Source of the DNA: Takakia lepidozioides
Lineage: Eukaryota; Plantae; Bryophyta
Assembly: GCA_030704615.1 (NCBI GenBank)
Contig: CM060731.1
Span: 4,588,001-4,652,000, forward strand
DNA: 64,000 nucleotides
Direction of reading: 5' to 3'
The notes beneath the pieces are model-generated. The model saw only the letters and a program-made list of their open reading frames with translations, was not told the DNA's origin and searched no databases. The position numbers and the translations under genes are program-made. Positions 1 through 55,297 of this stretch are shown piece after piece (the first letter of the stretch is position 1; each line of letters opens with the position of its first letter).

Positions 1-150
1 CTGGAATGAATAACAGAATATGCACAGTCGTTATCTGAGCTTCCTCCGCCATATGCTCTGCTCATTCTTCAACTGTGTTCTGGAGACAGCAGTAAACCGA
101 TTTACACTAGATCTGCGATAGCAAGGTACAAACATACTCGAGGAAGGAAG

Positions 151-3100: not shown

Positions 3101-3665
3101 AACCGTTTGGCCCGTGAAGGTGGGAACACATCTCAGCTTTCAGGAGATTGAAATGCTGGAGGAGGCAGGTTTTTCCCTTGCGAGACAACCCCAACTCCAT
3201 GCATGTGCTACTATTCCTGCGTCCTCCCGGGTCCCCCCGGCAAATCCTGACTTGTGGCCAACCAAACGAGATGGAAAGCTCGTTCGGCGTTTCCCTCCAA
3301 CCGCTGAACACTTTGGCAAAGTGGAGTCCGCAAGAATGCTCCAAGCTCGTGTCGGAAGCACCACGGAAGTACCCGATCCAGGATATGGTCGGGTATTCAC
3401 AATCATCACTTCCACATCTGCTGTTCATGACAGGACCTACGACATCACGGTTTCCAATTTCCCCAATTGCACATGTCCTGATTTTGTGAATATGCTATCA
3501 ACCAGTTTGGGCAAGAGAGGTAAATTCATACCCTGCAAACATTTGTATTTCATATTTTTGAGGAGGATGGTTTGCGATCCCAAACGTGACAACTTCATTC
3601 ACCAGGCCACTATGAGTTTCAACGAGGTCGATACTCTTTTGCAGCGGGATACAACACATGGGTAG
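151..3665 (+). pseudogene. MULE-like transposase: GCM/WRKY-like Zn domain + DDE core + C-terminal SWIM finger; one frameshift (~1065) and one intron (2163-2279)
   Basis: GCM-like CNGHLRC...CKFC...CGARM...HFGFHNH. DDE-type motifs MFD, FMADSA, CLFH, NLAETVH. SWIM CTCPDF...PCKH. A phase-0 GT-AG intron (gtacga...ttgcag, 117 nt) removes the stop at 2214 and joins ORF969 to ORF2232 in frame. Confidence 0.75.
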
Positions 3666-4084
3666 CATGAACTATGTAATGTGGTATGTGGATGACCATG
3701 ATTTGAAATGTGTAATTCACATCAATTCGTCGGCTGTGCAATGATATGGCCTCCAACTATACGGAGTGAGGTCTGAGTGACAACTTTTAGGTAGTGCACA
3801 TTTGTCATTGCACCTTTCGAAGTCTACATGTCTTGCTGTCGCTATGCACTACAATCATCTTTTGAAGATGATCATAACTCTCATTGTTATTTGAGGAGGG
3901 AAGAAGTCTTCTCGTGGCAGCCTTTATGGCGCACACTTTGTGAGGATATTTTGTCGTCTTCGTAATTGTAAAAGTGAAACAAACATTTGTAATTGCACAA
4001 TGTTGGATGCTGCAATTGTAGGCCTCAACGCTCGTCTTGATTCTATTTAGGCAAGATTCCCTGCATTAATTCCACGGTCATAGG

Positions 4085-4315
4085 ACCATCCACGGTTATA
4101 GGCGGCGCATGTTAATGCTGACGTGGCAGTTGACGGACAGTGCCACGTCATCATTTACCGCCACATCAGCATGCTGACATGACGCTCACGCCACGTCAGC
4201 ATGTGTGCAGGCTCACGCCACGTCAGCTGGCGTGAGCGTACGCTCACGCCACGTCACTCCTGCGTGAGCGTACGCTCGCGCGCTCACGTGCAACGCTCAC
4301 GCCATTGCGTCGTTG
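4085..4315. repeat. Subterminal palindromic repeat array (CGTGAGCGTACGCTCACG, GCCACGTCA, CCACGGTTATAGG)
   Basis: Same motifs, reverse-complemented, at 38351-38470 and 63219-63380. Confidence 0.8.
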
Positions 4316-4316
4316 A

Positions 4317-4500
4317 TTTCCAGCATTCCAGTATTCGAGTCGAGTTCCAGTATCTTGTACTCTTATCCATTGTTATAAAGATTATCTTGATTCATGTTTA
4401 CCCACCATGCATTCGGTCATACCGACCTTGACTTCTTGTCTAGTCTTGTACCTCTCGTCTGATCTCTTGTTTGTGTTCAGTCATGTTCTCGTCCTTGACA
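4317..4500 (+). repeat. 5' LTR remnant (3' part only)
   Basis: Near-identical to 10089-10272; ends ...CCTTGACA. Confidence 0.9.
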
Positions 4501-4538
4501 GTTTGGCGAGACTAAAGTTTGTTCCTTAGTTAGTTAAG

Positions 4539-5580
4539 ATGAAAGACACATTTGCGGAAATGGTCGCCACATTGCAAAGTCTTCAGCTCCAGATGCAAGA
4601 ACTTCGTACCTCTACTGCCCAATTGCAAGCTGATCAGTCTCAAGATCTTGGCAACGCTCTCCACAATTTGCAACAACAAAATTTCAGAGTTAAAGGAGTC
4701 GAACAATGGATCTTCAACCATGTGAGTCCCTACTGCAACAGCTCTTACTGTAACGGTTCATCTTCAACAGATTACGAGAGAACCAAAGATCAACATGCCC
4801 GAGAAATTTGATGGGACGAAATCAAGATTTCGTGGTTTTGTTCAACAAGTACGACTGTTCCTACGACTACATCCACAACGCTACCCCGATGACGGTGTTC
4901 AAGTGGGATTCGTGGGCACCTTTCTATCAGGCAGTGCCCTATCTTGGTTTGCACCGCTATTAGAAAAAAATTCGTATTTACTATATAATTTTGAAACATT
5001 CATGTCCGAGTTCACTGCAACATTTGGAGAGAATGATAGAGAGAGAGTTGCAGAGACAAAGATGCGAAATCTTCGACAAGGAGCACGTCCTGCTTCCGTT
5101 TATGCTGCCGAATTTCAACAACTTGCGTGCGACCTTGACTGGAATGAGAAGAGCCTCATTAGTCAGTTTCGATATGGGCTAAAAGATGATGTAAAAGATT
5201 TGTTGTTGACAATGCCAAACGTGAGCACACTGAGTGAATTCATCACCCAAGTCATTGCATGCGATAATCGTTTGTTCGAAAGACGTCAAGAGAAGCGATC
5301 TGGATGGTCGACGACGCATCATGCCGCTGCTACTACGGCACTAAACACAACGATCCATTAGACATCCGGTAGTCATCCTATGCATATTGATGTTGTCCGA
5401 TTCAAGCCATTGATACCACAAGAAAAACAAAGACGGCGTTCGAATGGATTATGCCTCTATTGTGGAGAAGAAGATCACATAGCATTAAACTGCCCCAACA
5501 AGAGAAGATTCAAAGCTCGGGGCGCAACTCAAGTGTTCGATACGAGGAGGTCGGAAAACGAAGATGTCAAGTCACAGTAG
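4539..5580 (+). pseudogene. gag: Chromovirus gag with zinc knuckle
   Basis: Retrotransposon gag motifs across ORFs 4539, 4795 and 5380; CX2CX4HX4C knuckle. G GAA AAC near 5553 precedes pol in the -1 frame. Confidence 0.9.
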
Positions 5581-8500
5581 GGACCATGCGGCTGGACACC
5601 ACAAATTCTTCACCGAAAAAATGTCTCTTTCTACCTCCAGACCCTGCACCTTGCTTCACAGTTCCGGTAAAAATCAGAGTGTAAAATCGAGATATCTCTG
5701 TAGAAGCACTTTTGGACTCGGGGGCTTCAGCTTGATTTATGGACAAAAACTTTGCGAAACAACACAATTTAACGCTCGTAAAGAAGAAACTATCGGCCCC
5801 CGTTGAAGTCATCGATGGACGACCGTTAGCATCAAGAAATGTGGACCATGAAACTCGACCACTTGAAGTAAAGCTTAAAGATCAAGCATCACATATTGTT
5901 TTCAACGTCATCCAGTCTCCAACGAATCCGGTGATCCTTGGACTTCCCTGGTTCGTACTTCACAATCCTGACATCGACTGGCGATCGCGAAAAATTTCTA
6001 CAAGACAAAAATGTAGAAATATCAAAGGTATTCAATCTCTGTTCCTTGAAGCTAGAGCTTTCATGAGAGCTACCAAAAAAGATGCGACATTTGCACTTTA
6101 TGCGATCCAATCAAGACCACAACAGAGAAATGTACTTCAACATTACCCGCTCAATATCAAGAGTTCAAGGATGTATTCGAGAAGAAAAATGCAGACATAT
6201 TGCCAGAACATCGACCTTATGACTGTGCAATTGAGTTACAAGAAGGAGCCCAACCACCATTCGGCCCAATCTATAACTTATCCCAGATGGAGTTGGCTGC
6301 ATTACGTGAATACATTGATGAAAATTTGTCGAAGCACTTCATCCGACATCCAAAATCACCTGTGGGGACGTCTATCTTGTTTGTGAAAAAGAATGACGGA
6401 TCATTACGCATGTGTGTAGACTATCGCGGTCTCAACAAAGTCACAATTAAGAATCATTATCCGTTGCCGCTGATTTCTAGGCTTCTCGACCAGCTGGGAC
6501 GAGTGAAAATTTTCACCAAAATTGACTTGAGATGAACTTATAACCTTGTACGGATAAAAGAAGGAGACGAATGGAAAACAACTTTTCGAACAAAGTATGG
6601 ACATTTTGAATACAGTGTTATGCCTTTCGGTCTTACAAATGCTCCAGCAATTTTTCAACATATGATGAATGACATCTTTCGAGAATTTTTAGATGACTTT
6701 GTAGTCATCTATTTGGACAACATTTTGATATTTTCACAGAATGAAGAAGAACATGGCCGTCATGTACGCATTGTCCTTGATAAATTAAGAGAAAGAGGAC
6801 TATATGTCAAGTTGGAAAAATGTATTTTCCATCAATATGAGGTCGAATTTCTAGGCTACATTATTTCCGACAAAGGTGTCTTTATGGATCAGAAGAAAGT
6901 ACAAACTATCATCGAGTGGATTAAACCAACTTCGGTCCAAGATGTACAATGTTTTCTGGGATTTGCAAATTTCTATAGAATCTTCATCAATGACTACTCC
7001 AAAATTGTTGCACCATTGATACGACTCACAGGGAAGGACAAATTTGTATGGGACGAGAAGGTTGACCAGACATTTGAAAGGCTAAAGCAGACATTTACAA
7101 CGGCTCCAATACTGGTACATGCAGACCCATCTAAACCATTCTTCTTGGAAGCAGATGCATCGGACTTTGCGCTTGGCGCTATAGTCTCTCAATACGGTCC
7201 GGATGGCCGACTTCATCTTGTTGGTTTTCGTTCTCGCAAATTTTCCGCTGCAGAGTTCAATTATGACATCCATGACAAAGAGCTTCTAGCGATCATTGAT
7301 GTTTTTGAGGAGTGACATCATCTACTAGAGGGAGCTAAACATCAGGTCACTGTCTACACTGATCACAAAAACCTCGAATATTTTATGGGTGCTCGTGTTT
7401 TGAATCGACATCAAGCCAGATGAGGTATGTCACTAGCAAGGTTTAATTTTGTTATTACCTATCGCCCCGGACATCTTCAAGGGGAAACCCGATGCTCTTT
7501 CTCGACGATCGTATCTTGCGCCGAAAAAATGGGAGACAGCTTTCGACCAACAGAAATCCATCATCTTGAAACCAGCAAATCTCCAATTGAATATGCTATC
7601 CATGTCCACCTATGACGATGCAGAGATCATAAAGAAGATTCAGGAAGCATTGAAGAGCGATCAATTTGCTACGATACTACGAAGTCAACTAAATCGACCT
7701 TGAGACAACCCACATGTTACAAACGACTTCGAATTCAAAGATGACTTATTTTATTTCAAGGGACTTCTCTATGTACCTCCAAGACCTACACGACTTCGAA
7801 TTCTTCAAACATGTCATGATCTTCCGGCTGCAAGACATTTCGGCTTCAACAAAACAATGGAATTGATATCCAGGGACTATTGGTGGCCGTAGATGTGGAA
7901 ACTCGTGAAAGAATTTATAAAATCTTGCGACACCTGTGCTAGAGCGAAGGGGCCACGACATCGACCTTACGACCTTCTTCAACCATTACCCATTCCTAAG
8001 GGTCCATGGTCGTCCGTGTCTATGGACTTTATTACGGACCTTCCAATTTCCAAGATCACCGATTCAATCCTTGTTATTGTAGATCGTTTTACAAAGATGA
8101 CACATTTCATTCCATGTATAAGACGGTTACCGGCGAGGAAACTGCAAGACTCTTCCTCAATAATATCTACCGCATTCATGGACTCCCGAAGGACATCGTA
8201 TCTGATCGAAGACCACAGTTCATATCAAATTTTTGGAGGGGATTATTTCACATATTGGATACTAAGATCAACCTCTCTACAGCTAATCATCCACAGACTG
8301 ATGGTCAAACCGAACGGGTAAACCAGATTTTGGAACAGTATCTTCGCTGTACGATAAATTATCACCAAGATAATTGGACGGACCTTCTCTCATTGGCTGA
8401 GTTTGCCTACAACAACACTATACATTCTTCGACCAAACAAACTTCATTTTTTTCCAATTATGGTCATCATCCTCGAGCAAATCATTTCCACATGAAGACT

Positions 8501-9050
8501 GTTGGAAGCCCTGCTGCAGAAAACCTTGCTACTCATCTTGCTACGATTCACAAGGAGCTTACATTCCACCTCGCAGATACAAGGAGTATGCATATCAACA
8601 TTGTCAACTCCAACCCCAGTTCAAGGTCGGAGATCGTGTGTGGCTTCTTCGACGGGACATACAAACCTCGCGTCCATCAAAGAAGTTGGATTATCAACGC
8701 CTGGGACCATTCAAAATTATTCGACAAATAAATCTGGTCAGTTTTCGGCTTGAATTCCCACGAAGTATGTGCATCCATCCAGTCTTTCATGTTTCATTAT
8801 TGGAGTTGTATCATCCATCGAATATTCCAGGGAGAGTCTCCGTACCATCTCTACCTATCGAAGTCAATCAAGAAATTGAGTATGAAGTCGACGAAGTCCT
8901 AGACTCTTGCATTAAGTATAAACGTGTATTTCGTACATTGGAAATGCTACGACATCAGTAAACGAATGTGGGAACCTTCATCCAACCTCGCCAATGCATC
9001 TGACAAAAGTCCAAGAGTTTCATCAACAATATCCAGCTAAGCCCCGAACT
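5553..9050 (+). pseudogene. pol: Chromovirus pol (PR-RT-RH-IN-chromodomain)
   Basis: Fragmented ORFs 5739-8961 carry the canonical motifs. Confidence 0.9.
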
Positions 9051-9100
9051 ACACGTCAATAAGACGTCACAACGATGATGTCAGTCAAGTTAGCTTCAAG

Positions 9101-9640
9101 GTGAAGACTCCACATTCAATGTATCTGATACACGCTAAGGAGAGAGGAACACCACATATACTAGCTACACTTCCAGCACTATTGCATCTTGTATTGACAA
9201 CATGGAGTCACAAGAACCAGATACATTGGAGTTGTCGCTTACCCAACTACCAGATCAGCCGTTCCGACTCTCACGACCTTCAACTTCACGCCGATGCTCG
9301 AAACGATGGGCCACCAATGCGACGCGTACTTCCTCGTCTGGACCCTGTACGATGGCAAGTGAAGCCTACTCGAAGTTTGATAATTCTATTGGAGGTTGAG
9401 GCTTCGGACCCAGAGGGCAACGAAATCATGTTTGAAGGCAGCTTCAAAAATCAAAATGCTCAAATCACTGCGTGGTCCCAAGTTCATGGTGTTGGACACT
9501 ATCGATGGTTGCAGGGACCTATAAATCATTTGAGTCAAGAACGAAGAGCCGAGTACCATTCGCAAGTACCATTCGCAGAATTTTGGATTTTCTTCAACTC
9601 TAAGCAAGTCCAAGATTTTACCGCTCATCAAGGAACTTGA
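9101..9640 (+). CDS. Extra ORF of unknown function between chromodomain and PPT
   Basis: 179 open codons inside the element, ending just before the PPT; no recognised domain. Confidence 0.35.
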   Translation: MKTPHSMYLIHAKERGTPHILATLPALLHLVLTTWSHKNQIHWSCRLPNYQISRSDSHDLQLHADARNDGPPMRRVLPRLDPVRWQVKPTRSLIILLEVEASDPEGNEIMFEGSFKNQNAQITAWSQVHGVGHYRWLQGPINHLSQERRAEYHSQVPFAEFWIFFNSKQVQDFTAHQGT

Positions 9641-9658
9641 CGCTAGAGGAGGGGATGA

Positions 9659-10272
9659 TGTCACGGACATAGCCCAGAGGAACTTACCAGGAGTAAATAC
9701 CAGAAGTTATCAAGTTACCATGTTACCGGAAGTTACCATGACTTATCATGATTTATCATGATCTACCATGATTTACCATTAGTTACCAAGTTACCGGAAG
9801 TTTATCAAACTACCAAGATTAACTTGGGAAAATGCTCAGGAAGCTTCTTTTGGAGGAAACTTCTTCATCAAGATACCTCATTTGTTTAAGGAAGCCTCTC
9901 CATCAAGAAACCTCTATAGGTGAAGCTTCTTAGGAAACTTCTTAGTAGCTAATATATATAGGAGGCGAGACTGGACACTCTTCAGTCTCGCCAACATAAG
10001 TTCGAGCTACTCTTGTTCCCAATCCTAGTACTCCAGTCCAGCTTCCAGTACTCCACTCCAGTTTCCAGTATCTAGTACCCCAGTCCAGTTTCCAGCATTC
10101 TAGTATTCGAGTCGAGTTCCAGTATCTTGTACTCTTATCCATTGTTATAAAGATCATCTTGATTCATGTTTATCCACCATGCATTCGGCCACGCCGACCT
10201 TGACTTCTTGTCTAGTCTTGTACCTCTCGTCTGATCTCTTGTTTGTGTTCAGTCACGTTCTCGTCCTTGACA
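9659..10272 (+). repeat. 3' LTR (TG...CA, 614 bp) of the chromovirus
   Basis: Starts TGTCACGG after the PPT, ends TTGACA; TATA-like run at 9952-9960. Confidence 0.95.
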
Positions 10273-11470
10273 GTGTAGGCTTGCTCTCCACAGTCAATAC
10301 TTCCCCCTCTGCATTCTTGGGCAGCTAGGCGTTGATTGCCCTGCCTTTGCATCCCGCTTACTATGCAGCCAATGACCCCTGCTCTGCATGGACCCCATTG
10401 CTCACGTGGACACTGACATCTTCCCTTTCCAACAACATCTTCGTTCTGCACGAGATCTTCTTCCGGCACCAGTACGATCGCATCTTCCTCCATTCGAGCA
10501 GTTGTTTGCTTATGGCATAAAGGGGGCAGTAGCCGCAATGCGAAGTGGCTCTTAGTTACGGCGGTCCTCTGACTGGAGTCTTCTCTCTCTCTCTGCCCAA
10601 GGCATCGATCACCTACATTAGACTATCGTGGACCGCGTGCACCGACCCTCCTTCTCCGGCATGTTTTCCAATAGCTCATCTTTTAATGTACATCGTGCTA
10701 GGTTTTTATCTTTTGTAGGCTAAGTGCAGGCGCATGCAGGCTGTCGGCGTGACCCACCATTACCCCATTTTGTTTGTCATCATTCATCTTTGTCACAGCT
10801 CTTCGTTTGTGACTTGGGCTACCGCATGCCTCTGTGTTTGGGCCTATGACATTGTGTTTGCCACCAGCATATTGACACACTTGCTATTCACCTCCTTTGA
10901 TGTCTATGTGGTGGAGATCGCACCACCATCCATGATGTCGTCAGAAACGCTGTCGCATCGATTACGCGAGATGTTGATTTTCATGTCTTGCGAGAGCAAT
11001 GTCATGTCCTCCCTTCTCACATTTGTAGTCAACGATGCGTCGACATTATTCTGTCTTTAGATGGTTTTTGCACCCTAGTCGACGTTGTAATTGTAGACCC
11101 TACCCGATCCGACCTATTTTCACGTTCGACATCCTCCCAGGGCTCTGCGGCTTTGGTTGCTGCTCAAGTCAAGGAAACGCGACTAACGGGACAGACATCC
11201 TAGTGCCCCTTGGTTATGGAGGCATTTGGATATCTCCATTGCCAATTTGACAACCTACTCCGTTCATGTGCCCATCAAGCGGCTCAAAACAAGACCACGG
11301 GCATTCCATATGCTTCTGTTCTTGTGGCTTTTTACAGACAAAAAATTGTCGTTGCATTACAAAGAGCTCAGGCAATGTCCATTTTACATTGGGCAAATGT
11401 AACCCATTGGATTGGCTTCATCCCACCTCCCAACTCTCCCGGATGTTATGCCCATGTTGCCCTCTGACCT
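10273..11470 (+). mobile_element. Degraded 3' end of an RLE-type (CRE/NeSL-like) non-LTR retrotransposon
   Basis: Across frames: HD.VR, R.VDII, DVVIVDPTR, PL..EAFG, VALQRAQA.SI, typical of a C-terminal Zn-finger plus restriction-like endonuclease. Confidence 0.6.
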
Positions 11471-16533: not shown

Positions 16534-16968
16534 CTCTCCTATCTCAACTCCAGATCACTACAAGGCATCTCACACCAAAACTTCCAAAGTCTTTTGTGCC
16601 ACGGTTTAGACTCCTCCTCCGACTACCGACAGAATACTTTCGCATCGTCGATGCCGTTCTTTCTGTTGATATGCCCGAGTTTGATCGACATAATCGCTAA
16701 ACACTTGGATGTTCAATTGTACTCGACAGAATTTGTTGTTCATGTTAGCAACCAAGCTTTGGGCTCTGCCAAAACATTGAAGAACTATGGAGGAGCAAGG
16801 TGAGCAAGCTCATTTCAAAACTCGACTCACCGTTAGGAAATCCTAGGCCATTTTCGAAGGACTAGAGTTCAAAAAGCTGCGATCAGTACAATGAAGAGTC
16901 GCAACAAATACTCAGATAGACAGCAGGCCAGCAACCCAAGAGATCACCGGCAAGATTTTCCCAAAGGG

Positions 16969-17451
16969 TGTGGAGCTCCAGATTCCATGGCGGTGCATAT
17001 GCTCTCCTGTCATACCCTTGGATGAAAAGCATGGGGTTGTTGGACATTAATGATAACAGGGACTATCTTTGGTTATGTGATTGTCCTACGTTAACAGTCA
17101 CGAGATAAGCCAACCTGGAAACTGAGCTGGCGGATGTGAGGTCTTGTAATCTGCATGTCCAATAAGAGTGCTGCATCTGGATCTCCAGATTAGCCTCTCC
17201 CGATTATTTAAATGAAGAGATCATCAGGCTTAGGCAGGATGTTTTTGGTGTACAAACTGGTGGAGTGGATGTGTGAAGGACGTTGGATGAAACTGTGTTG
17301 ATGCTTTGCTGCGTGCAACGATTGGCTTAGATTGTATGTGTGCTCTGCAATAGATCCTTCCCTGTTAGCTTGGCAAAGTTCTATAGTTTACAATCCCCTG
17401 TGCATGACTTAACCCGCAGAGGACGAGAGCATATCCTTGCGTCGGGGTTCT
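16969..17451 (+). repeat. LTR segment A (5' copy, 483 bp)
   Basis: Highly similar to 24347-24829; ends GGGGTTCT rather than CA. Confidence 0.95.
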
Positions 17452-17452
17452 T

Positions 17453-17475
17453 TGGTGGAGATGGGGGGCATTGAA
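17453..17475 (+). promoter_or_regulatory. Primer-binding site, probably tRNA-Ala
   Basis: TGGTGGAGATGGGGGGCATTGAA is complementary to a tRNA 3' end of the ...CATCTCCACCA (Ala) type. Confidence 0.75.
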
Positions 17476-17679
17476 ATCTAACGGCTTGGGTGTCCTGTTA
17501 ATGATTGCCTAGGTTCTATGTGGCTATGGTGGAAAGACGGCTGTACGGGAAATCTAGAAAGATGGCTACGCGATCCACTATGTTCAATCATTTGTCCCTC
17601 CTGGTGTATGTTGTTTCTGCTGATTTTGTGTGTCTTGTGTCTTCCTGCTTTGTGAGTGAACACTGTACAAACGGCGACC

Positions 17680-18570
17680 ATGGCTTCCAGTTCAAATGAT
17701 GCTGCTTCGTTTGTGATTTACGACGATTCGTTTGAAGCTGTCTTCCTGAGTGTTGTGCATGATACTGCGTCCTCTGAAGTGCTAAGGCCTTACGAGGGAG
17801 AACCGCCAGTGAGGGGAGACGCTGAGATTCCACTTGACGTGCCCTCGGCTTACTGGATAGAGAAGTTTGAGCAGACGACCGTTGATGAAGCGCGCAAGAC
17901 TGTGAGTTCTGAAGGAGAAAAACGCGAGCAGCGTCGCAATATTGCTGAAGCCAAGCAGGGTGCGTTTGCTGGCAGACTGCTGCAGAAGCTGCATGCAAAG
18001 GAAATCGCCAAATGCTTACCTCGGGAGGTCATCCGTGAGCGACTTGGACAAGACGAGCTGCTCACTTGGCCACAGATTGGAGTGCCCAAGTTTGTTGTCA
18101 CGCGACATCGCACCAACAACCTTGAGAGCTTTCTGCACCCAAAGGTTCCTAGTGGCTATCGCTTTTGGGAGCTTGTCTGAGGTGGGAGTGCAGCGGCGCT
18201 GACAAAGATACGCCCTGCCTGGACTGCCGATCAGCCTGCTGATGATTTTTCGTGGATTACTGGCGTCCCACAACACTTATTTCACCTCTCTGCGCGGGAT
18301 GTTGTAATTTTTCCTGGCAAAACCTTTGATCAAGAAAAGGTTGGGCTCTGTCGAGTCCAGACTCCTATTGACAAGTATCCGTTGCACTCCCTGGTAGTTA
18401 AGGAGAGGGTAGTGCGCACGGTGACTCGTGTTGCATTTTGGCTGAAGGTGGCTCAGTCACTCTGGCATCTGCAGGGCGAAGCTGTGTATCTCAGTTACAA
18501 TCATCGTTTCATCTCTTCCTACACCGTCACGGATTGGGAGAAGTGCATGCTGCATCCCAGTGACAGGTGA
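17680..18570 (+). pseudogene. Extra ORF upstream of gag (about 296 codons, one internal TGA at 18178)
   Basis: ORF17656 continues in frame past the single TGA into ORF18382. Confidence 0.6.
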
Positions 18571-18611
18571 TTTTCTCTGTGCCTTGATCTTCATTTACGT
18601 TATCTTAGTGG

Positions 18612-19745
18612 ATGCTGACCAGGCGACGTGCTAAACTGTTGGAGTCTGAGAGTGCTAAGATGAGTGAATGGAAGGAAGGGATAGAAGAGATATTTGGTGA
18701 TGACTCAGTTCCTGGCCCTGAGACACAACCTGCTGCGACATCAAGAGGCATCAATCATCCGGATGGGTTGGACTTACAAGATCTTTGTGATGCCATGAAA
18801 ACTACCTCTGATTGTCCTGCTCTGTTGGAACTTTTGTTGAACAAACAAACTAATTCTACACAAACAGTTGCCAAACCTCATGAATTCAAACCTGTCAAGC
18901 AGCCATACCCAGAGTTTAAGCTGGGTGACCATTTTGATAATTTCTTGAGGTTCTTTGAATTAAGCATGAAGATGAATGTTGTGCCAGCGGAATTTATTTC
19001 CAGCACGTTCAGATTTTGTTTGAAATGAGAGGCTCAGATTCTGTTTGAAGCTAGTATCCAGGATATGGGAGAGATCTCTTGGAAGGTGGCCAAAGAATTG
19101 GCTCATCAGCTGTTTCAGGAGATTAAACCTACCCACTATGCCATTCCTGAAAGAAAGTTTTGCATAGGAGAGAGTGTGTGGAAGTACTATGCAGAAATCA
19201 GGACTTCAGTATGCAAGGCAGTACCAGTGGTGGCTTAGAGACCATTGGCCACCAAGATTTCTTTCATCAAAGGGTTACCACCAGCTGAACAAGTGTTCTT
19301 GGAGAAAAGCTCATACAAAACGGACAAGGAGATGGTTCAGCTCATTGAGGAAAGAGCTCGCATCAAGGCAGCAAAGAGGGGCTTAGCTCCTGCCAAAAGG
19401 TCTCAGGTCATGTTGCATGATGTTGATACGTGTGCTGGTACTGATTGGGATGAGGGCTGCCTAGAATTGTTGCCTGCTGTTGTGAGAAATGTGCAGGATA
19501 CTGTAAGGACGGAGCTGCAGGCTTTCAAAGCTGAAAGTCATTGGCGGACTTCTGATGATGGTGAAAGGAAGGCAGGTCATAGAGGTCGAACCAATACTGG
19601 TTCAGGTTATCAAGAAAGAGCAGCCTGCTTGATTTGTAAGAGCACTGGGCACTGGACCAGGTTTTGCCCCATGCAGCCAGACTTATCTGCCATCTATGAG
19701 CAATGGAAACGAGATCAAAGGGGTAAGGGTGCTTTAAACGAGTAA
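18612..19745 (+). pseudogene. gag: gag with zinc knuckle
   Basis: CLICKSTGHWTRFC knuckle; one stop and one frameshift. Confidence 0.85.
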
Positions 19746-19795
19746 GGTCATCTGCTACGGAAGGGCCAGGTGATCACAGGTGTAGACCTTCTAAA
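19733..19795 (+). promoter_or_regulatory. -1 ribosomal frameshift signal (T TTA AAC plus downstream stem or pseudoknot)
   Basis: Heptamer is in gag phase; the -1 frame is open into the pol ORF19808; GGTCATCTG can pair with CAGGTGATC. Confidence 0.7.
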
Positions 19796-22700
19796 CCCTC
19801 AGCTACTTTGCTCGTGTCCACCAATTTCAAATTGCTCTATACTGAGGTGTTGAAAACCAAGAATAGAGAGTGTATTCACCCCTTGATTGCACAGTGTCAT
19901 ATTGGTCACTTATCTTTTCAATGTGTCATAGACACGGGCTGTACAATATCTGCCATTCCTTTGCATGTGGTTCAAGTTCTGGGTTTGAAAATGTCTCCAG
20001 CCAAGGGTATTGAGGTCACCATAGCTAATGGTACTAGCTATGAACCCATTGGTTTAGTTAGTGTGCCAGTAAGGATTAGTCGCAAGGTTGTCACTATCGC
20101 AAGGATTGTAACCATGGGCGAACAACTACTTTTGGGGTTAGATTGGATGTCTGAAGCCATGGCTTCCATTGATCTGTGTACTAATGTCATGACCTTGAAG
20201 GATGGTGAAGGTGGCAGCTGCAAAGTCAATTTGAATCAGATCCCTATCCTGACAGGCAGTGGGACCAGACATCTTGCTTGCATGAAGGCTGTCTCACGTG
20301 AAGTTAGGCAACGGGCTGGAGATACATACAACTGGACTCGCTTCTTTGGTTTTCAGAGCACCCCAACGATGCTTTTACACCAGTGGCACATACCTGCTGT
20401 TGGCTGCAAGACTGGCACACCCATGCCTGTCGAGGGTGACACCCTTCTTCTTAGAGCCCCTGCTAATGTTCAATTACCTGCTATGTCTCAAGTCATTGTG
20501 TCTACAGGCCTTGCCTTCATCTGCCCACAAGGCAAATATCTTGAGATTGAGGGTTGGAAATGCCTGTCATTACAAAAACATTGCTTGGTTGCATCAGGGC
20601 TTTTGGATAGGGGTTTTAGGGGTCATGTTTGCATTCTGATTGCCAATCCAGAGCGTATGCCTGTCACCATCAAGAAGGGTCAAGTGCTGGCCAGGCTCAC
20701 TGCTGTGCCCATCAGTGACATATCCTCGGTGGAGCCAGCTTTACATCTACGAGATATTGGTCTGGAAGATGATCCTCTGGATGGTCTGATTGCTATGACC
20801 AGTTTAGCTGCAGCCCCAACAAGTCACAGCCTCACTACTGAGCAAGAAGCTCATTTTCAACAGGTACTGGCTGAGATTAAGGTGGGTGAACTGACTGATT
20901 CTCAGCAAGCTCAATTACATTTGCTGCTCAAAAGGAATTTGGACATATTTAGCAAAGGTTCACATGACCTGGGCTGCACAAAGATACTTAAGCATGAAAT
21001 TATTACTGAAGGAAAACCAGTCAAACAATATGCTTACAAAGAATATGTCCGTGAAAGAGCAGTCATTCAAGAAGAAATTAGGAAGATGTTGGATTCAGGA
21101 GTGATAAAACCTTTTGTTTCCCCCTGGGCTGGTCCCATTGTGCTTGTGGGGAAGAAAGATGGCACCACACGCTTCTGTGTGGACTTTCGAAGGTTGAATG
21201 CAATGACTGCCACGTATCAACGAGACCCTAGACCAACTTAATGGGGCAACTATTTTTTCTTCCCTTGATTTAGCCTCTGGGTTCTGGCAAGTTCCACTAA
21301 CGGAGGACTCCAAAGAAAAGACTGCATTTACCTGCAGGTATGGTCTGTTTCAGTACGAAACCATGCCGTTTGGGCTTTGTAATGCCACTGCTACCTTCCA
21401 AAGGCTCATGGACGTGGTCCTTGGTAATTTAAGATGGGAATGTGCTCTTGTATATGTAGATGATATCAATATTTATTCCAGCAGCTTTGCATCTCACCTT
21501 TTGGACATGCAAAGAGTCATGAGCAGGTTACGAAGTGCTGGACTTAAAATTAAGGCAAAGAAATCTGATTTTTGTATGTTGGAGTTGCGCTTTTTGGGAC
21601 ACGTTCTTTGTGGGGATGGCATCAAACCTGACTTAACCAAAGTCCAGGCAGTTTGGGATTTTCCTATCCCGCAGGACAAACATTGTGTAAGAGCATTCTT
21701 AGGCCTTGCATCTTATTATAGAAGGTTCATCCTTCATTTTGCTAAGCTAGCTGGTCCCTTGTTTTACTTGCTTTACAAAGATGTTAAATTTCAGTGGGGT
21801 AAGGCAGAAGCGTTGGCCTTTGAGAGACTCAAGATAGCCTTGACTTCTGCTCATATATTCCTCATATTTCCTGATTTCTCCATTCCCTTTCTGTTGCAGA
21901 CTGATGCTAGTGACCTAGCTGTTTCAGCCATCCTAAGCCAGAAGAAGGATGGTCGTGAGCATGTTGTTGCTTATGCATCTAAACGGCTCGATAAGCATGA
22001 GAGAAATTATAGCATTACCGATAAGGAAGGCCTAGCAATTATATTTGGTGTCAAACACTTCCGTCAGTATTTACATGGTTGTTATTTTACTGTTGAGACT
22101 GACCACCTGCCTCTCAAAGCCTTGAAAACTCCACGAGAATTATCAGGTAGATTGGCTTGCTGGTCTCTTCTTCTACAAGGGTTTGAATATGACATTGTAT
22201 ATAAGAAGGGCAAAGAAAATGGTAACGTTGATGCATTGACAAGAGGGGAAACAAAGGTTCTCACCCCTTACTCTTCTCTTGATGATTTAATTGCTTTACC
22301 TGCATCTGTTCCTACTTCTACCATCACTGCAGATCAGCTTTTGTTTTGTAGCTTGCTTGATGAGATGCCTAGGTCCATGAACTTGTTGGATGATTGGGAT
22401 CTCATGACATTTGACCCTGGTTGATCATCTTGTGGGTGGAAGGGTGTGCAGCAGATCGCATCTGCAGATTTCAGAGTGGTTGTATCTTCTTAGCTTAGGC
22501 ATATCCTGTCTTTTCCATAGCTGCCATAGTGATCTATTCCCCTTAGGACCTGTGCTTCAGCCCTGCCTGTTACCTCCATGACCATGTTCAGATGTGGTAT
22601 GAGACTCTTATGTTATAGGAGAACACAGAGGCGGACACTCCTATCTCCTCATATTAACCCACTGCTTGCTGGTCTTGCTAAGTGTACAGGTATGGAGGAT

Positions 22701-23970
22701 CAGTTGCATTTGGCTCTACTCCATAAGTGCATGACCGGCACTCAACTTCCAGGCATATCCAAGGCTACTCAAAGACATGTTAACTATCATTTTCCTCATT
22801 GTGAGGCACGTGAAGGTAAACTATCATGAGGATTGCCTTGGAAGGTCAGACCCATGCTATGGAGGTTCCTAATAGGGATTCAGTTTCAGAGTTGCTTGAG
22901 TTGCATCATTCTTCTGCTTTTGCTGGTCACTTGGGCATCACTAAGACCTTGAAGAGGCTCCAAGAGAGGTATCATTGGAAAGGGATGGTTCAAGATATTA
23001 CACACTTTATCTCTTGTTGTGTGGAGTGCCATTCTCAGACACTACTTCCTAGGGCCCGCTTCACTTGCTTTGCAACCCATTCCGGTGTTTGAACCATTCG
23101 CCAGAGTGGGCCTAGATCTTGTTGGGCCACTCCAGCCTACGATTAAAGGACATTGTTGCATTGTTGTGGCAACTGATTACCTATCTAAGTGGGTGGAGGT
23201 TCAACCCATGGCTGCTAAGGATGCAGACACTGTGGCACAATTCTTTTTCAACGAGGTCATTTTGCGCCATGGCTGTCCGATCAAGGCTCTGAATTTTGTA
23301 ATCAGTTCATGCAGATTGTGTGTTTTAATTTGGGTGTTAAGCATCGTACGACTGCACCCTATCATCCTCAATGCAATGGCTTGACTGAAAGGTTCAATCA
23401 TACCATGTGTGCTATGCTTGAGAAGACAGGGTCACTCTTGGGTGATTGGGATACTACTCTACCCACTCTAATTTTTGTTTATCGGCCTCTGTACACTCTA
23501 TCACCAGGTATTCTCCATTTGAGTTACTCTATGGTAGAAAGGCTCGCACTCCCCTGTATAATACTCCGTTGCTCACTCCCATTGCAGAGCCCACTGATTG
23601 GCAGCAATTTGTGGATGCTATGCTTTCCAAACGGCTTGTTTTTGAGACTAAGGCCAGGACTAACATTTCTCGGGCTCAGGCTGTGCAGGCTCGTAACTAC
23701 AACAGGAAAGTTCACTACTCAAAGGAATTTTTGGTGGGCCAAACTGTGTGTGTCCGTTTGCAATCTGGGAAAATTATCTCCAAAGCTTCGAAACGCATTG
23801 AGGGTCCTTATCTCATCACTGAAAAACTTCGTGGGAGGAAGTTCCTGTTGCTTCCCCAACATCATTCCACGACACCCATAACTCACCATGTGCATGTGGA
23901 CTCCCTGGTGCACAGCAGATTGGTCTTCGATCTCACCTGCATCAATGTAGAAGGCAGGACGACTGGCTGA
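19739..23970 (+). pseudogene. pol: pol: PR - dUTPase-like - RT - RNase H - integrase
   Basis: IDTG; STGL...GLLDRGFRG...GQVLARL; YVDD; LQTDAS; HHCC; GLDLVGP; YHPQCNGLTER. Confidence 0.9.
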
Positions 23971-24335
23971 TTTTTGTGTGTGATTGAGTGCAGGGATTAA
24001 AGGCTGGAGTGTTGCAGCCTTGTGTGTTTTCTGGAGGTTCAAGCTATGGCCTCTCTTATGTGTTTTCTGATGGTTCAACCGTGGCCATCTCTGGTGTTGT
24101 GTGGTGTGCAAATAATGGTCTGCTACAGACCTGCGACATGTGGTGTTAGAGGAGGCGGACGAACTTAGCACAGGCTTTAGCTTCGTGTTAGTGATTTGCA
24201 TCACTATTGTAACGTGATAGGGGTTTTTCATCCCTCTCGTGCCGGATGCTAGTATTAGGTATGGTGTGATTTACTTAGCTTCGGAAGTTTGATATTTTAG
24301 TTAGCTCGCAGGAGCTCGCTTTCCTAGCGGGGGCA

Positions 24336-24838
24336 AGCTTTACATATGTGGAGCTTTAGATTCCATGGCGGTGCATATGCTCTCCTGTCAGTCCCTTGGA
24401 TGAAAAGCATGGGGTTGTTGGACATTAATGATAACAGGGACTATCTTTGGTTATGTGATTGTCCTACGTTAACAGTCACGAGATAAGCCAACCTGGAAAC
24501 TGAGTTGGCGGATGTGAGGTCTTGTAATCTGCATGTCCAATAAGAGTGCTGCATCTGGATCTCCAGATTAGCCTCTCCTGATTATTTAAATGAAGAGATC
24601 ATCAGGCTTAGGCAGGATGTTTTTGGTGTACAAACTGGTGCAGTGGATGTGTGAAGGACGCTAGATGAAACTGTGTTGATGCTTTGCCGCATGCAAAGAT
24701 TGGCTTAGATTGTATGTGTGCTCTGCAATAGATCCTTCCCTGTCAGCTTGGCAAAGTTCTATAGCTTACAATCCCCTGTGCATGACTTAACCCACAGAGG
24801 ATGAGAGCATATCCTTGCGTCGGGGTTCTAGCTTTACA
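24336..24838 (+). repeat. 3' repeat block: B(24336-24344) - TA - A'(24347-24829) - B'(24830-24838)
   Basis: AGCTTTACA lies on both sides of A'; PPT-like AGCGGGGGCA immediately precedes B. Confidence 0.9.
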
Positions 24839-24870
24839 AGGGAATCAAGGTTACTTCAAGTGGGGGGATC

Positions 24871-24938
24871 CGCACTCATTGACATTCGCATGGCTAGATT
24901 TAGGCGCACTCATTGACATTCGCATGGCTAGATTTAGG
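24871..24938. repeat. Exact 34-bp tandem duplication
   Basis: CGCACTCATTGACATTCGCATGGCTAGATTTAGG x2. Confidence 0.9.
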
Positions 24939-26185
24939 CGCTCGAAATCAGCCCTTTGTTTCTCAATTCTGCTAGGGCTACAAAATGCTGGGGATAAGTG
25001 CGGAGGTGGTGACTATTACAATGTCCACTTGGATCCTCCTTGGCTACAGGTTTGCTGATCTAGTGTACAATATGGCAATTTTTTCACAGCATGTATAGAT
25101 TGCACAGGCGACACATCTGGAAATGGGGGCAGAAATAGGTGACTCCAAGAGCCCATGTATTGTTGAAAACTAGCCATCATGAAAATGCGAGGATAACATT
25201 TCAGGTACCATAGCCCAATTTCAAGGAGCAATCTGGTACTACTGACTCAAGTGAAACAACAGAGTTTTAGGCACCATAGCCCAATTACAAAGAACAATCT
25301 AGCACTACTGACACAAGTGAAAAAACAGAGTTGTAGGCACCATAGCCCACTAAAAACATGCATTCTGGCACTAAAGAAACAAGTCCAGAAATGGAAGCCA
25401 ACCACCATGGCCTGAAGAGTGGAACACATCCAAATGGCCTATGTAAATGTCGGGAATGTCACTACACTTGCGGAAATGATGGAAACAAAGGGAGAGCTCT
25501 GCTTTAGCAAATCAGAGTTCTCAGCTACACTACAAGACACAAATTTCTACTTCTATTCAAACCGTCCATAACTCCCAAGGCACAACCCCCCTTCAGTTGT
25601 CAAAACAGGCATCATAGGGAAAATTGTCCAGACCAAAGAACTTTTGGCCATACATTCCCATGACCACTGGCAGGTGCGGATCCAAAGCGGACCGCAGCTT
25701 GCTCTTCAGAAATGACAGAGACAATAACATTCTCGAGAGAATTTGGAGCTTAATTATCCTTCTCGTATTCAGATTATCCTAGCACTTGTGGTCCTCTGCG
25801 TCCGGCTTAGCAAATGCGTGGTTATTTTGTAGTGAGGTGTGCTCAAGTGTCTATAGTCCGATTTGTTATCACGCCTGGTTTCTTTCCTATCCCTAAATCG
25901 TTTCATTTTAACATTCTTGAAAGAATCGGAGCATAATTATCCTTCTCATATCCAGATTAGGATTCCAAGAAAAGTCTGGTTTTGCATTAACAGTAGAACA
26001 ACACTATTGCATGGCCAAAAAGTGGCAATTAGATTTACACTCACTGCTCCAGCTGGACTACCTCTGCACCGCGTACTTTACAGCCACGGTATCCACAGTA
26101 CAAGATACTCACACCAGACATCTAAAAACACTTTGTAATGATAACTTGTACTCAGAGCCCTCCCACAGCTGCACCAAGTCTAGGC

Positions 26186-40599: not shown

Positions 40600-43500
40600 G
40601 ATTAACAGTGCCTGATTTGATCAATTGTGTCGCTGCTGCTGTGGCTTCCAGTTGACCATCTATCCATGCAGGTTTCTTGTACCTATCATTCCACAGCGAA
40701 TCATAGGTAATCTGGAGCATGAAATTCGGCCCTCTGGGATGAACTTGGACCCACACTCTATCCCTGCTCCTTCAGCTATCCATGCCTCTGCACAAAATCA
40801 TGCATACATCCTCGCATTGCTGCTAGCAGCTGACAATGACAGCCTAGAATTGTTCCAGCAAACACCCCAACCCTACTTATCACACTAGTTCATATGCTCA
40901 ATTGCATCTGCTACTCTCTATAATCCAACAGGCGTTCACCTTCTTGCCTCAATTGTCCCACCATTGACTGGGTTAGAAAAGTATTCATTCCACAGCTTTT
41001 CCTCGTCATTTGCCGCTAGGTCTCCCAAGCCTCCATCTTGCGCCCTTGCTGTGCATATCCTGCAATCATCACACTCCACAACACCACATGTCGTTCAGCC
41101 ATAATGTCGAACACTCCTTTTGCATTCTCAATGCACCCACATTTGGCATACATGTCCACCAGGGCAATGTTCAAAATGATATCAGGTGCAATTCCAGATT
41201 TGATGATGTCACCTTGGATCTCTTTGCCCTTTTCCAGGGCTTCCAGGCTTGCACAAGCATTGCAAACACACATAAACGTGATCTGGTTATGCTTCACCCC
41301 TTCCCCCATCATAGGTCTCCAAGGCCTCCATCCCGCGCCCCTCCTATGCATCTCCTGCAAGTAGGGCATTACATGACACCATATCTTGTTCAACCATACT
41401 GTCGAACACTCCCTTTGCATCCTCGATGCACCCATATTTTGCATACATATCCACCAGGGTATTGTTCAGAATCGGGTACAATCTAGCTCTGAAAATGTCA
41501 CCATGGACCTCTTTGCCCTTTTCCAGGGCTGCCAAGCTTGTAGAATCATTGCAAATGCACACAAACGTGATGTGGTCAGTGGGCTTCACCCCTTCCCCCA
41601 TCATTCGATCATAGGTCTTCAAAGCCTCCATACCATGTCCATGCTGTGCATATCCTGCAAGCATCGCGTTCCACGACACCACAAAATGTTTAGCCATAGT
41701 GTTGAAAACTCCCTTCGCATCCTTAATGCACCCACATTTGGCATACATGTCCACCCACTACAGCAAAAGGGGGGGGGGGTTTGCGACGCCAGCCGTGCCC
41801 CCACGCCCCGCGCGGCGCCGAGCCCGCGACATTTTTTTGCGACGTCCCGGCGTCGCAATCCCCCGCTGCGACATCATTACGACGCCCAGCCGTCGTAAGG
41901 TGGCATGAAGGGGGAAAGAGGGCCCTCGCTGCGACGGATTTTTTTTCTTGTGACGCCCAGACGTCGGAATATATATATATATATATATTTATTATTTTTT
42001 TGTTAAAGACGTTGCGACGCCTCAGCGTCGCAAAAGCGTCATTAAAGGCATCCCAGCGCCTCTGCAACGCCAAGGCGTTGCAATAGCATTACCACAGTGG
42101 GAGTTTTTTTTTTTTTTTTTTTGGCTTTGCGGCCTTCAACTTCACAAAAGCGTCACTGGGGGCGCCCCACGCTGGGACGCCCAACGTTGCGACGTCAGGG
42201 GTCGCCACAGGGGTTCGCAATGGTGTTATGGTCAGCTTAGGTCCACACAAGGACGTCGCTTGGGGCACCTAGCGGTGGCGGGGTACAACAACGGCGAGGA
42301 TGCTGGAGCTGGGGCTAGGACTGGGGCTGGGTACTAAGGCTGTGGAGACGCTTTTCCAGGAGCAATCTCGCTTATATATATGTGGCTGGATCACAGCTCT
42401 CCTCACCTACATAATTCCCATAGATTAGACACGTGGGTCTCCTTCAACGCTCCATCTGGTTACGGATTAGAGTCCAGCGTGGGGATACTCCCCGGCGTCA
42501 CAAGAGAGACCCCCTTAGAAGGAACTTGAAGGAACTTGAAGGAACTCTTTATATGTATATATATATACTTCTTTTGCGATACATAGATGTAGTGTAGGTG
42601 TGTTGGTTAGTTTGTAGTGTCTTAGAAATGTTATAACGTGGAGGTCTTAGGTTCAAATATGCGGTGCATGATATATGTAGAACAATGAACATATCGTCAT
42701 TAGACAGAACCGGAGTCAATGGTCAACAAGTTTTTGAAATTCAAGTTTCAAATTCAAATTTTTCCTGCCTAAATTCAAATGTACCCCCCTTAAATTGTGG
42801 CGTCTGGGCACTTTGCGACCCCCGGCCGGTGCTAATTCTGCATTGCAGAATAGGGGTTTTTTTTTTTTTTTTTTTTTTTTTCGACACCCAGGCGTCGCAA
42901 ATCGCAGTTTCGCATATTTGCGACCCCCATTGGTCGCAAATTTGCGACGTTTTTTTGGCGACGGGCTTGCGACGCCCAGACGTCGCAAATTTGGTTTTTT
43001 TTCCCGCCCGAAAAGGGCTGTTTTACGACGCCGCGGCGTAAAAAAAACCCCCCATTTTCCTGTAGTGACCAGGGCAGTGTTCAGAATGACATATGGTACA
43101 ATTCCAGTTTTGACGATGTCACCATGGACCTCTTTTCCCTTTTCCAGAGCTCCCATGCTTGCACATGCATTGCAAACCCAAACAACTGTGTTGAGCTTCA
43201 TCCCTTTGCGCATCATTTGCTCATAGGTCTCCAAAGTTTTCCTACCACACTCATGCTTGGTAAATCCTGCCAACATTATATTCCACGTGATCAAATATCG
43301 TTGAGGCATTCTGTTAAACACTTGGTGAGCATCCATGATGCTCCCGCACTTAAGGTGTTGAGTAGAAAAACATTTGGCGTGAATCCACTTTGGATAATGT
43401 GAGTGTGCACCTGCTTTCCAGCTTCCAGACCTTCCATCTTGATGCACTTAAGCAAGAGACAGACATACATACCTGAATCTGCTGAAATGCCTCATTGGTC

Positions 43501-44522
43501 TAAAGTTTGTAGAGCCTCTGTCACTCTGCCTGCCGCAAAGCATCTTCACATGCCTAGAAGTGCAGCCAGAAGAGGCATTGTGGACTCCCTCTCTTGATTC
43601 TCTTTCAGAAGCTGTGGGCATGGTTGAGGTGTCTGGTTTTATAAACTGTGTTGCTGCAGCTGCAGCCTTTAGTTGACCATCTACCCATGCAGGTTTTTCT
43701 TGTAGCTATTGATCCACAGGGAATCGCATCTAATACAATTCTAGCTTTGGCGATGCAACCATGCACCTCTTTGCCCGTTTCCAGGGCTTCCAGGCTTGCA
43801 CACGCACTGCAAACGCACACAAACCTGATGTGGTCGGGCTTCACCCTTCCCACATCATTTGCTCATAGGTCTCCAAAGCCTCCATCCCGTGCCCCTGTTG
43901 TGCATACCCTGCAAGCATCGCATTCCACGACACCACATCTCGTTCAGCCAAAGTGTGGAATACTCCCTTCGCATCCCGAATGCACCCACATTTGGCAAAC
44001 CTGTCAGTTTAGGATGACATCTGGTACAATTCCAGCTTTGACGATGTCAGCATGGACCTCTTTCCCCTTTTCCAGGGCTCCCAGGCTTGCACACGCATTG
44101 CAAACACCAACAAAGGTGATGTGGTTGGGCTTCACTGGCCCTTCGCGCAACATTTGCTCGTAGGTCTCCAAAGCATTCCTACCACACCCATGTTAAATCC
44201 TGCCAACATTATATCCAACGTGATCAAAGTTCGTTGAGGCATTCCGTTGAACATTCGGTGTGCGTTCATGATGTTCCTGCACTTAACATACATGTTCACA
44301 AGGGTGTTGAGGAGACAAACACTTGGCGTGAATCCACTTTGGATAATGTGAGTGTGCACCTACTTTCCAGCTTCCAGACCCTTCATTTTGATGCACTTAA
44401 GCAAGAGACAAACATACATATCTGAATCTGCTGAAATGCTCCTTGGTTTAAAGGTTGTAGAGCCTCTTTCAGTCTGCCTGCCTCACAAAGAATCTTCACA
44501 TGCCCAGAAGAGCTAGAAGAGG
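40600..44522 (-). pseudogene. Scrambled PLS-class PPR gene fragments (repeated N-terminal leader plus P/L/S motifs)
   Basis: ALVDMYAKCG.IEDAKGVF..M, VVSWNAML.GYAQHG.G.EAL, ITFVC.CNACASL.ALEKGKEVH. Multiple frameshifts; no E or DYW domain seen. Confidence 0.9.
41756..43067. mobile_element. Non-autonomous CACTA element inserted in a PPR motif
   Basis: CACTACAG...CTGTAGTG ends, 3-bp TSD ACC on both sides, GCGACG subterminal repeats. Confidence 0.95.
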
Positions 44523-44849
44523 TGTCAAGTTATTTTACCACTAGTGTGAAACTAGCTAGGAAATAGCTAGCTTTTACATATTGACATTTGGGATTGGCCC
44601 AAGTGTCAATCCAGGGGTCAAGGCAGATTTAGGCCCTGGAGTGGTTATCTTCACGGCAAGCGCGGGAGGCTCATCTTTCTCGAGTTGAGCCTCACCGCGC
44701 CTACCTATGGCGCCGTAGTGTGGATTCCCCATGGCGTGGGGTGCACTTGGCTTGACTTGTATTTGAGTGATGAGGTTATATATGCATGAGTTTATGCTTC
44801 AGCTTTGTGAGCTCGCATGAGCTTGTGCTTGTATTCTTCTTCTTTATCA
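44523..44849 (+). repeat. LTR segment A (5' copy)
   Basis: About 4 differences from 55892-56216. Confidence 0.95.
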
Positions 44850-46380
44850 CTCGAGAAAGATCAGCTCGTATCTGTGAGTGCCAGATATGAGTTAGTTGTA
44901 GCACTTGTGGTTTTTGCTTGAGAATGAGAGAAACCAAGTTGTTATGCAAGGAGCACCGTGGAGCTCTTGGTTGCTAGAAGCGGAGGCGATGTGGGTTACG
45001 AGGTGGTAGACCTTGGCATTCGATCTTCAGCTTCAGAGATGAAAGCACCATGCTGCAGGTAATTCCAGAGCACCTTGATGGTTCCAGATTGTGTACATGC
45101 ATGAGCAAGCACGATTGGGAAGAGGACCAGTCAAGAGCAAGTTATAGTGGCTTTGGTGGCAAAGCTGAGAACTGGACTTGGGAATGCGAGCTTTCATTGT
45201 GTGAAGGATTGCAAGACCAAGCGAAAGGGCTGATTTGGCTTGGGGCAAATCAGTGCACTTTATGGAGTATGGTGAGATTGGGTTTCAATCTCGAGCTTCA
45301 GCATTGAGAGGGCTCTTGTCATGGCAAGAGCAGGGCTGGAACAGGAGCTAAGAGGTGCGGCAAGGCCATGGAATGTGCACCTAGGGTTTCAGAGCTTGGA
45401 AGAAGAGCTCTTGCACCACAAGAGAAGTGTCTTGTGGCTGGAAATGTAAGCCTTAGGGTTTCAGGAGCTTGGCAAAGGCTGTGGAGTGCTTAGTCTTGTC
45501 TTAGAGAGCATCAAGAGCCAAGGAGCCAAGATAGGGGGCTGATATCTCTTGTGTGAAGAGGTTGCATGTGTGGAGCATGTATTCAGCTCATTGAAGCTTC
45601 CATCTTCAAGCTTGGAGGGCAAGCAAGGAAGAGGGAAGGGCTGACTTCCCTTATGTGAGGGCAATGCATGTGTGGAGCATGCTATCAGCCTGATGAAGGC
45701 TTGCACTTTCAGGTGTGGGAGTGCAAGAAAGGAAGGAAGGGGCTGGTTTCCCTGTAGGGCATGTGGAGCATGCTTTCAGCCTGCTGAAGCTTGTATTTTC
45801 AGGTTTGTGGGTGCAAGAAATGAAGCAAAGGAGCTGATTCTCTTATGGTGAGAGTGGGGCATATGTGGAGCATGCCTTCAGCCCATTGAGGCTCTTGTTT
45901 TCAAGCTTTAGAAAGCTAGAATGGAAGGTCTAGGGCTGGTTTCCACTTGGAGTGAAAGAAAAGCACTTGTAGGGCCTATGTGAGTTGGGGTTTCAACTTC
46001 AAGCTTGAAGGGAGCGCAACTCTTGAAGCAGCAGGTGTAGGGGGCTTGAATAGGCTCTAAGACAGATGTTATGGCCAAGGAGAGTGCTTGAATGAGTGCT
46101 CACAAGGGCTGGGAACCAGCAGGGCTTGGTTGTTTGCCATTGAGTTTAGTGGCGTGTTTGGGGAGGCTAAGTGAGAAAGAAGGCTTGGTTTGTGGCAACC
46201 ACCTCATGGCTTAGGGCTACTATGGTGGTGTGTGGGAGCCGAAAGAGCAAGAATACCTTGCTGATTTCCTCACAGCCACCATAGCTCGGTGGAAAGAAGC
46301 CTAGAGTCCAAGAGACACAAACCCTAGCTTGGCATGGCTAAACCCCTTAGAGAAATGGCTAAACTGCCAGAGCGGCCATG

Positions 46381-47640: not shown

Positions 47641-48441
47641 TGGTCTGTGGTGGCCCGTGTTGACCTGTGGACGGCCTGTGCTGACTCGTGGAGGCACTGG
47701 TGGACTGCCTAAGGACTGGCATGTGGTCTGGAAGGCCGAATTTTGAAGCTCGTGGAGGGCGGTTTGAGGAGTATCTTCATGATATTCCCATGGTCATGCA
47801 AGTGAGGGAAGAGATGAGAGGAAGAGTGTTGGGATGAGGGCATGCTGGGGTTAGGAATTGCTTTAGCTTCTCTTCCTCGTAGTTTCCACCCTCTCATTAG
47901 GCCAAGACCTTTCCGTAGGTGGAGGCAAGAGTCAGTCCGGGTTTGGGCTGGGGTGTCCTTGCAGGAGCAACACCGTGGAGTTGTTTTTGGTGTGGGGGAG
48001 TTGTCGTTCTGATTTCTTGTGTTTGGATCCCCTCCATACCTACATGCTTGACTGTGCGCCATGCTAGTTTTGTGTGGGCGCTTGTTTTTATAGGTGATTG
48101 GTCCAGATTTGATCACCGGCCAGTCCTAGAGCATGCTGTCGATGGTGAGGCTGGGGTGATGACCAGCCAGACCATCATTGTTTCTCCTGTGGTGAGGTTG
48201 GAGGTGATGACCAGCCAACCATAGGAGTGCTTGCGGTGGATGCAGGTACAGGTGTAGGCTATGTTAGGAACTTAGTATTCCAAACCATAAGCCGCAACAG
48301 GTTCTCTACCCGGTTACCTTGTGGAGAGGGGGTTATGGACATGTTCATGACCGGTTGAGTGTCAACACGGAGGTGCCACTAGTTGCTGGGGACAGTGTCG
48401 ATTCAAGCACTAGCGATACTAGTGGGTACACGAGATGAGGT

Positions 48442-55200: not shown

Positions 55201-55297
55201 TTGGAAGGACCATGTGCGTAATTGTGCGCCATGTCACCTTCCCAATGTCGATGGCAGAGTTGACCCAAACTTGGCAGTGGTACCTGCAGGTTTGAGG

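Follow-up and report, generated by a model that had tools for sequence, protein, structure and literature searches.

The window analysed here, a stretch of 64,000 nucleotides from Takakia lepidozioides, contains at positions 16969-24838 a broken copy of a Ty3/Gypsy element, here called E1. Its layout is AGGG-[A]-T-PBS...PPT-[B]-TA-[A][B]-AGGG, in which A is a long repeat, B is the 9-bp sequence AGCTTTACA, and PBS and PPT are the putative primer-binding site and polypurine tract. The following features were recognised in E1 and at its borders:

16965-16968, + strand: left target-site duplication (TSD), AGGG, read from the letters
16969-17451, + strand: A1, the 5' repeat, with a TG start and the end GGGGTTCT, without B
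17453-17469, + strand: putative tRNA primer-binding site with a TGG start; the identical sequence stands directly after A in other contigs
17656-19742, + strand: broken frames in the gag position, without a Pfam match
19727-21238, + strand: frame with aspartyl protease (PF13975, 1.2e-07) and dUTPase (PF00692, 3e-11)
21207-22421, + strand: frame with reverse transcriptase (motif YVDD) and RNase H
22820-23967, + strand: integrase in four frame pieces, with H2C2 zinc finger, D,D(35)E core and GPY motif
24326-24335, + strand: G-rich site resembling a polypurine tract (five G followed by CA), with a function assigned from its position
24336-24344, + strand: B1, the 9-bp right integrase tip as it occurs inside the element, AGCTTTACA
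24342-24349, + strand: internal att-like palindrome ACA-TA-TGT, a predicted staggered cut site
24347-24829, + strand: A2, the other copy of the long repeat
24830-24838, + strand: B2, terminal 9-bp tip with the CA end, present at four other loci
24839-24842, + strand: right TSD, AGGG

The coding part is interrupted by stops and frameshifts. Its domains follow in the order protease, reverse transcriptase (RT), RNase H and integrase, which is that of Ty3/Gypsy elements, with a dUTPase placed between protease and RT, and the D,D(35)E motif of the integrase is present, split over two frames of this broken copy. No match to a tyrosine recombinase was obtained in the E1 frames scanned; DIRS-order PAT/Ngaro elements are characterised by such a recombinase without a DDE integrase, a combination that E1 does not have. 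E1 is also devoid of a Dnmt3-type methyltransferase, the trait of KnitGypsy-Dnmt3. Its closest protein relatives (P0001, P0003, P0004, P0008 and P0133) are 57-62% identical over RT and RNase H, and P0133 carries a dUTPase as well; no Chlamydomonas names occur among the protein matches listed. In an RT tree built by a quick method from 64 of about 240 rows and 149 columns, E1 clustered with six relatives (97), apart from E2, a second Gypsy element of the window that forms a long branch. A search for the DNA of these relatives by protein pattern covered 125 metagenome stretches and 7 viral ones and confirmed none, and an exact 22-base scan of metagenome contigs gave 0 matches.

The two long repeats differ at 16 of 483 sites, with no gaps. 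The TG...CA termini and the short TSD, the latter seen for the window copy only, are those of a Ty3/Gypsy element. The canonical arrangement of two complete TG...CA long terminal repeats (LTRs) delimited by PBS and PPT is, however, not that of E1, whose 5' repeat lacks the last 9 bp; those 9 bp stand after the PPT instead. E1 is thus Gypsy by its proteins and a variant by its ends. Both ends read letter for letter as the original prediction had described them, including a PPT-to-PBS repeat without a terminal CA and a CA end that exists only where A is joined to B. In PAT/Ngaro tyrosine-recombinase retrotransposons the split direct repeats have the order A1-B1-A2-B2, and their intermediate is probably a circle that opens at B|A. 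The split repeats A1-B1-A2-B2 are found in E1 too, which differs from those elements in having a DDE integrase, a PBS, a PPT, TG...CA ends and a 4-bp TSD. Several contigs of run X3 cover the right flank of E1 (24839-24940), which contains a 42-base tandem duplication.

At the 5' end, the TGG start of the PBS is kept in other copies, and the site may be tRNA-Ala-like; the window has zero tRNA genes. The order A-T-PBS, as first proposed, holds for the letters of the window copy but not as a fixed trait, the extra T at 17452 being confined to that copy: the PBS abuts A without a spacer in seven contigs (three of X3, three of X4 at 24829, and one of X1). Because of this abutment, the A|B join has the primer-defined end on its A side.

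Other copies of the family were sought in public runs, where 60 contigs aligned to the 3' end of E1 (33 in X3, 24 in X4, 3 in X6 and 0 in X2); X2-X4 are one sample, which may be the window's own source, and X6 belongs to a separate study. Fourteen of the 19 loose-end rows at this end were examined. Four of them exit on the 5' side, within the repeat; among the ten that leave the 3' end of the repeat, four enter the PBS and six pass through B into new flank, and in none does A run directly into unrelated DNA, the outcome that was to expose B as a one-off match. The six B rows represent four other loci from two studies, one locus being found in both. At one locus a diverged, T-rich end of A is followed by an exact B, and at the remaining three the alignment spans B with 2-4 differences in 50-53 bases, the nine letters not being resolved individually. 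The B tip is therefore real and family-wide. Position 24838 is A at 5/5 loci, and the base after it is A, A, G, C and A; since the former is constant and the latter varies, the family ends in CA with a 4-bp TSD. The same comparison led us to reject an alternative 5-bp TSD, AAGGG, that had been offered for the window copy. In the listed contigs of 4/5 loci the A|B join is free of gaps. Two contigs may represent a second 5' flank with the same TG start, although their agreement is weak (0.65).

The junction between B, TA and A had been described as an imperfect palindrome of 20 bp, and 16 of its 20 positions do pair, with a perfect core, ACATATGT. That description stands for the letters and is not supported for the 20-mer as a functional unit: its hairpin is not significant against shuffled sequence (z -0.54) and is missing in E2, for which reasons the hairpin was rejected. 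What the compared elements have in common is CA-NN-TG, with a spacer that is self-complementary in both of its forms (TA and GC). B is complementary to the first nine bases of A at 7/9 positions, or 8/9 with the variant G24350A found in four contigs, and on these letters it is readable as the inverted-repeat arm of a putative att site. Two other origins were considered and dismissed. A fold-back origin of B2 is contradicted by B2 being equal to B1 and not to the complement of the start of A; a realignment between the PPT and the A end, which are both G-rich in E1, does not apply generally, as they are not so in Gypsy-7a of Chlamydomonas.

The second Gypsy element with an E1-like layout, E2, consists of the following parts:

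44523-56407, + strand: E2 as a whole, TSD GAGG
44523-44848, + strand: A1
44849-44865, + strand: self-priming-type site, directly after A1
55700-55889, + strand: B1 (190 bp), followed by a GC spacer
55892-56215, + strand: A2
56216-56407, + strand: B2

Its internal site is CA-GC-TG, and B1 begins directly after a G tract. Positions 44849-44865 are complementary at 16 of 17 sites to 44669-44685 in the element's own repeat and, since this self-priming-type site begins right after A1, the A|B join of E2 also lies at the primer-defined end. The identities of B1 with B2 (98.4%) and of A1 with A2 (98.5%) are similar, as would be expected if B2 were recopied from B1 at each insertion. E2 carries C-5 methylase and PHD domains. 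The RT identity between E1 and E2 is only 40%, equal to that between E1 and E3, a further Gypsy element of the window, and the layout thus spans distant families.

E3 (4317-10274) has canonical ends and serves as an in-window control: its CA-ended repeat is followed by a short spacer and then by a site that has a complement of 11-13 bases near 9984-9996; its 5' repeat is shortened. Beside it, the stretch 10-4315 holds long frames without a Pfam match; it has a Cys/His motif near 3460-3545, is rich in palindromes at 4080-4315 and has an inverted relative at 63219-63996 (79-86%), at the opposite end of the window. It resembles a DNA transposon that has inserted into E3. The interior of E2 includes a GC-rich array (46380-47610) with units of about 51 bases, and degenerate repeats of about 290-300 bases flank the element at 40940-44460 and 56470-58460, which suggests that E2 inserted into a repeat-built region.

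Comparable ends occur in Chlamydomonas reinhardtii, where Gypsy-7a_cRei is active, with 86 new insertions, and is drawn, according to the legend of Fig. 6, with a left LTR that lacks its last 8 bp (Craig et al., 2023; PMC9940879). The ends of the Chlamydomonas library entries were taken from Supplemental Dataset S15 of that paper, in which families 1-13 could be judged and families 14 and 15 were not judgeable. An E1-type layout is present in nine of the 13 numbered families (2, 3, 5, 6, 7, 8, 9, 10 and 11) and lacking in families 1, 4, 12 and 13. All nine have CA-GC-TG, and six have a B of 6-8 bp; Gypsy-2 and -11 have no G run beside B, which counts against the reading favoured below. Closest to E1 are Gypsy-7a_cRei and the library families Gypsy-2, -8, -9, -10 and -11 (PMC9940879). 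The short-tip traits of Gypsy-7a_cRei, namely a tip after a G tract, a 2-base spacer and a PBS abutting the left repeat, are all found in E1; Gypsy-7a_cRei differs in its spacer, GC in place of TA, and in a PHD finger in place of the dUTPase. As to tip length, the families with a short B (E1, Gypsy-2, -7, -8, -9, -10b and -11) begin their internal part with TGG or T-TGG, and those with a long B (E2, Gypsy-3 and -6) do not; tip length may go with primer type. KnitGypsy-Dnmt3 of Klebsormidium nitens resembles E1 in combining Gypsy domains with a DIRS-type repeat arrangement, its repeats being called DIRS-like (de Mendoza et al., 2018; PMC5890265); it carries a Dnmt3 domain, in which E2 is comparable to it and E1 is not.

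For the origin of this layout we favour a route, at a probability of about 0.55, in which the cDNA ends are joined to each other and integrase then opens the molecule at the internal CA-TA-TG. Priming by a tRNA and at the PPT would give, through standard reverse transcription, a linear cDNA B-TA-A...B-TA-A without a terminal CA. The A end on the right would be joined to the start of B on the left, most simply as a 2-LTR circle, and a staggered cleavage of CA-TA-TG, on each strand after CA, would leave two recessed CA-3'OH ends, whose 2-base 5' overhangs would have the shape of normally processed ends. Strand transfer would then produce A-PBS...PPT-B-TA-A-B with a 4-bp TSD, the product that is seen. 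The left internal site would be the favoured one, perhaps by becoming double-stranded first or by adjoining the joined ends.

An integrase probably requires an end longer than 9 bp. As the PPT-to-PBS repeat is without a terminal CA, and as a tip of 6-9 bp is likely too short to be held as an end of its own, the right tip was probably attached to A before insertion. A free circle would offer two equal sites and thus predicts a mirror isomer, A-B-TA-A-PBS...PPT-B, whose absence counts against a free circle: its joint was not encountered among the rows listed for 128 contigs, a listing short of 23 loose-end rows and a kind of sequence that drops rare forms, and 0/6 B rows continued into TA-TG after B. 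Retroviral RNase H cleaves where the G run ends; if the same were true of E1, two bases would be missing from the join, the place of the RNase H cut within the PPT being uncertain by a few bases.

The integrases of foamy virus and HIV-1 are reported to cut a palindromic att-att junction in a 2-LTR circle, which gives processed ends (PMC1180852; PMC4372172). There the cut falls at the end-to-end junction itself, across a 4-base spacer, as a side path that leads to a provirus with normal LTRs, whereas in E1 the site lies within the repeat, apart from the join, with a 2-base spacer, and the route would be obligatory. Processed linear retroviral ends carry 2-base extensions, a 4-base overhang is predicted for the classical circle junction, and the linear form has been shown to be the integration precursor of retroviruses (PMC11054761).

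RT could instead make the join itself: the finished plus strand would jump, end to end, to the left end of the minus strand and copy B, and integrase would cut the resulting nicked or non-covalent circle at the adjacent site. We regard this as possible, if doubtful. It needs no host ligase before insertion, it agrees with the gap-free A|B joins, and it would tie cutting to the left site, which fits the missing mirror isomer; against it, the predicted ends share no microhomology in E1 or in E2. It is unlikely that integrase cuts the left internal site while the cDNA is still linear, keeps the B fragment and inserts both new ends, leaving host repair to join A to B in the chromosome. This order of events would yield the same product without a circle and could operate in E2 with its B of 190 bp, yet B has only 9 bp in E1, and 6-8 bp in six of the Chlamydomonas families, which is probably not enough for it to remain paired and bound, and if a chromosome break were being repaired, scars at the join should be more frequent than is seen.

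If, in the manner of PAT/Ngaro elements, the RNA already contained the A-B junction and jumps from one split repeat to another copied it, the junction would not be rebuilt from cDNA ends. The order A1-B1-A2-B2 matches, and the naming of the Klebsormidium Gypsy repeats as DIRS-like (PMC5890265) speaks for it too. We nevertheless consider it very improbable. With the PBS directly next to A1 and the G tract directly next to B1, A2|B2 would be left uncopied under standard priming; a template jump would have only 9 bp to work with, which is very little; and E1 has a TSD and a DDE integrase. Finally, the 9-mer as a chance or one-off match can hardly be credited: AGCTTTACA does have two further occurrences elsewhere in the window, but the chance of this 9-mer at its fixed site is 4e-6, or 5e-5 allowing 11 offsets, B is found at four other loci, and the layout recurs in E2 and in Chlamydomonas.

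Extended beyond E1, the favoured route of joining followed by an internal cut would mean that in several green-lineage Gypsy families the att site is separated from the cDNA ends and integration proceeds obligatorily through an end-joined 2-LTR circle, with a DDE integrase opening an internal CA-NN-TG and the tips of 6-9 bp pointing to joining as the earlier event; we put this wider reading at even odds. A route of this kind was proposed for retroviruses in 1984 and later abandoned. The layout itself is already in print twice (PMC9940879; PMC5890265), in both cases without a mechanism in the parts of these papers used here, and those of Craig et al. (2023) make no mention of the internal copy of the tip. 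A mechanism of joining followed by an internal cut was not found for a Gypsy element among the titles and abstract openings of the open literature, a scope that leaves out subscription papers and Repbase.

In annotation, LTR finders built on the assumption of two equal TG...CA repeats will put the 3' end of such elements, and their TSD, in the wrong place. If the favoured route is true, the normal substrate of a DDE integrase would here be end-joined cDNA, which is regarded as at most a side path for retroviruses, and a circular route long held to be a dead end would be in use. The short tip sharpens this claim and, as an element of the same layout is active in laboratory Chlamydomonas, the question is directly testable.
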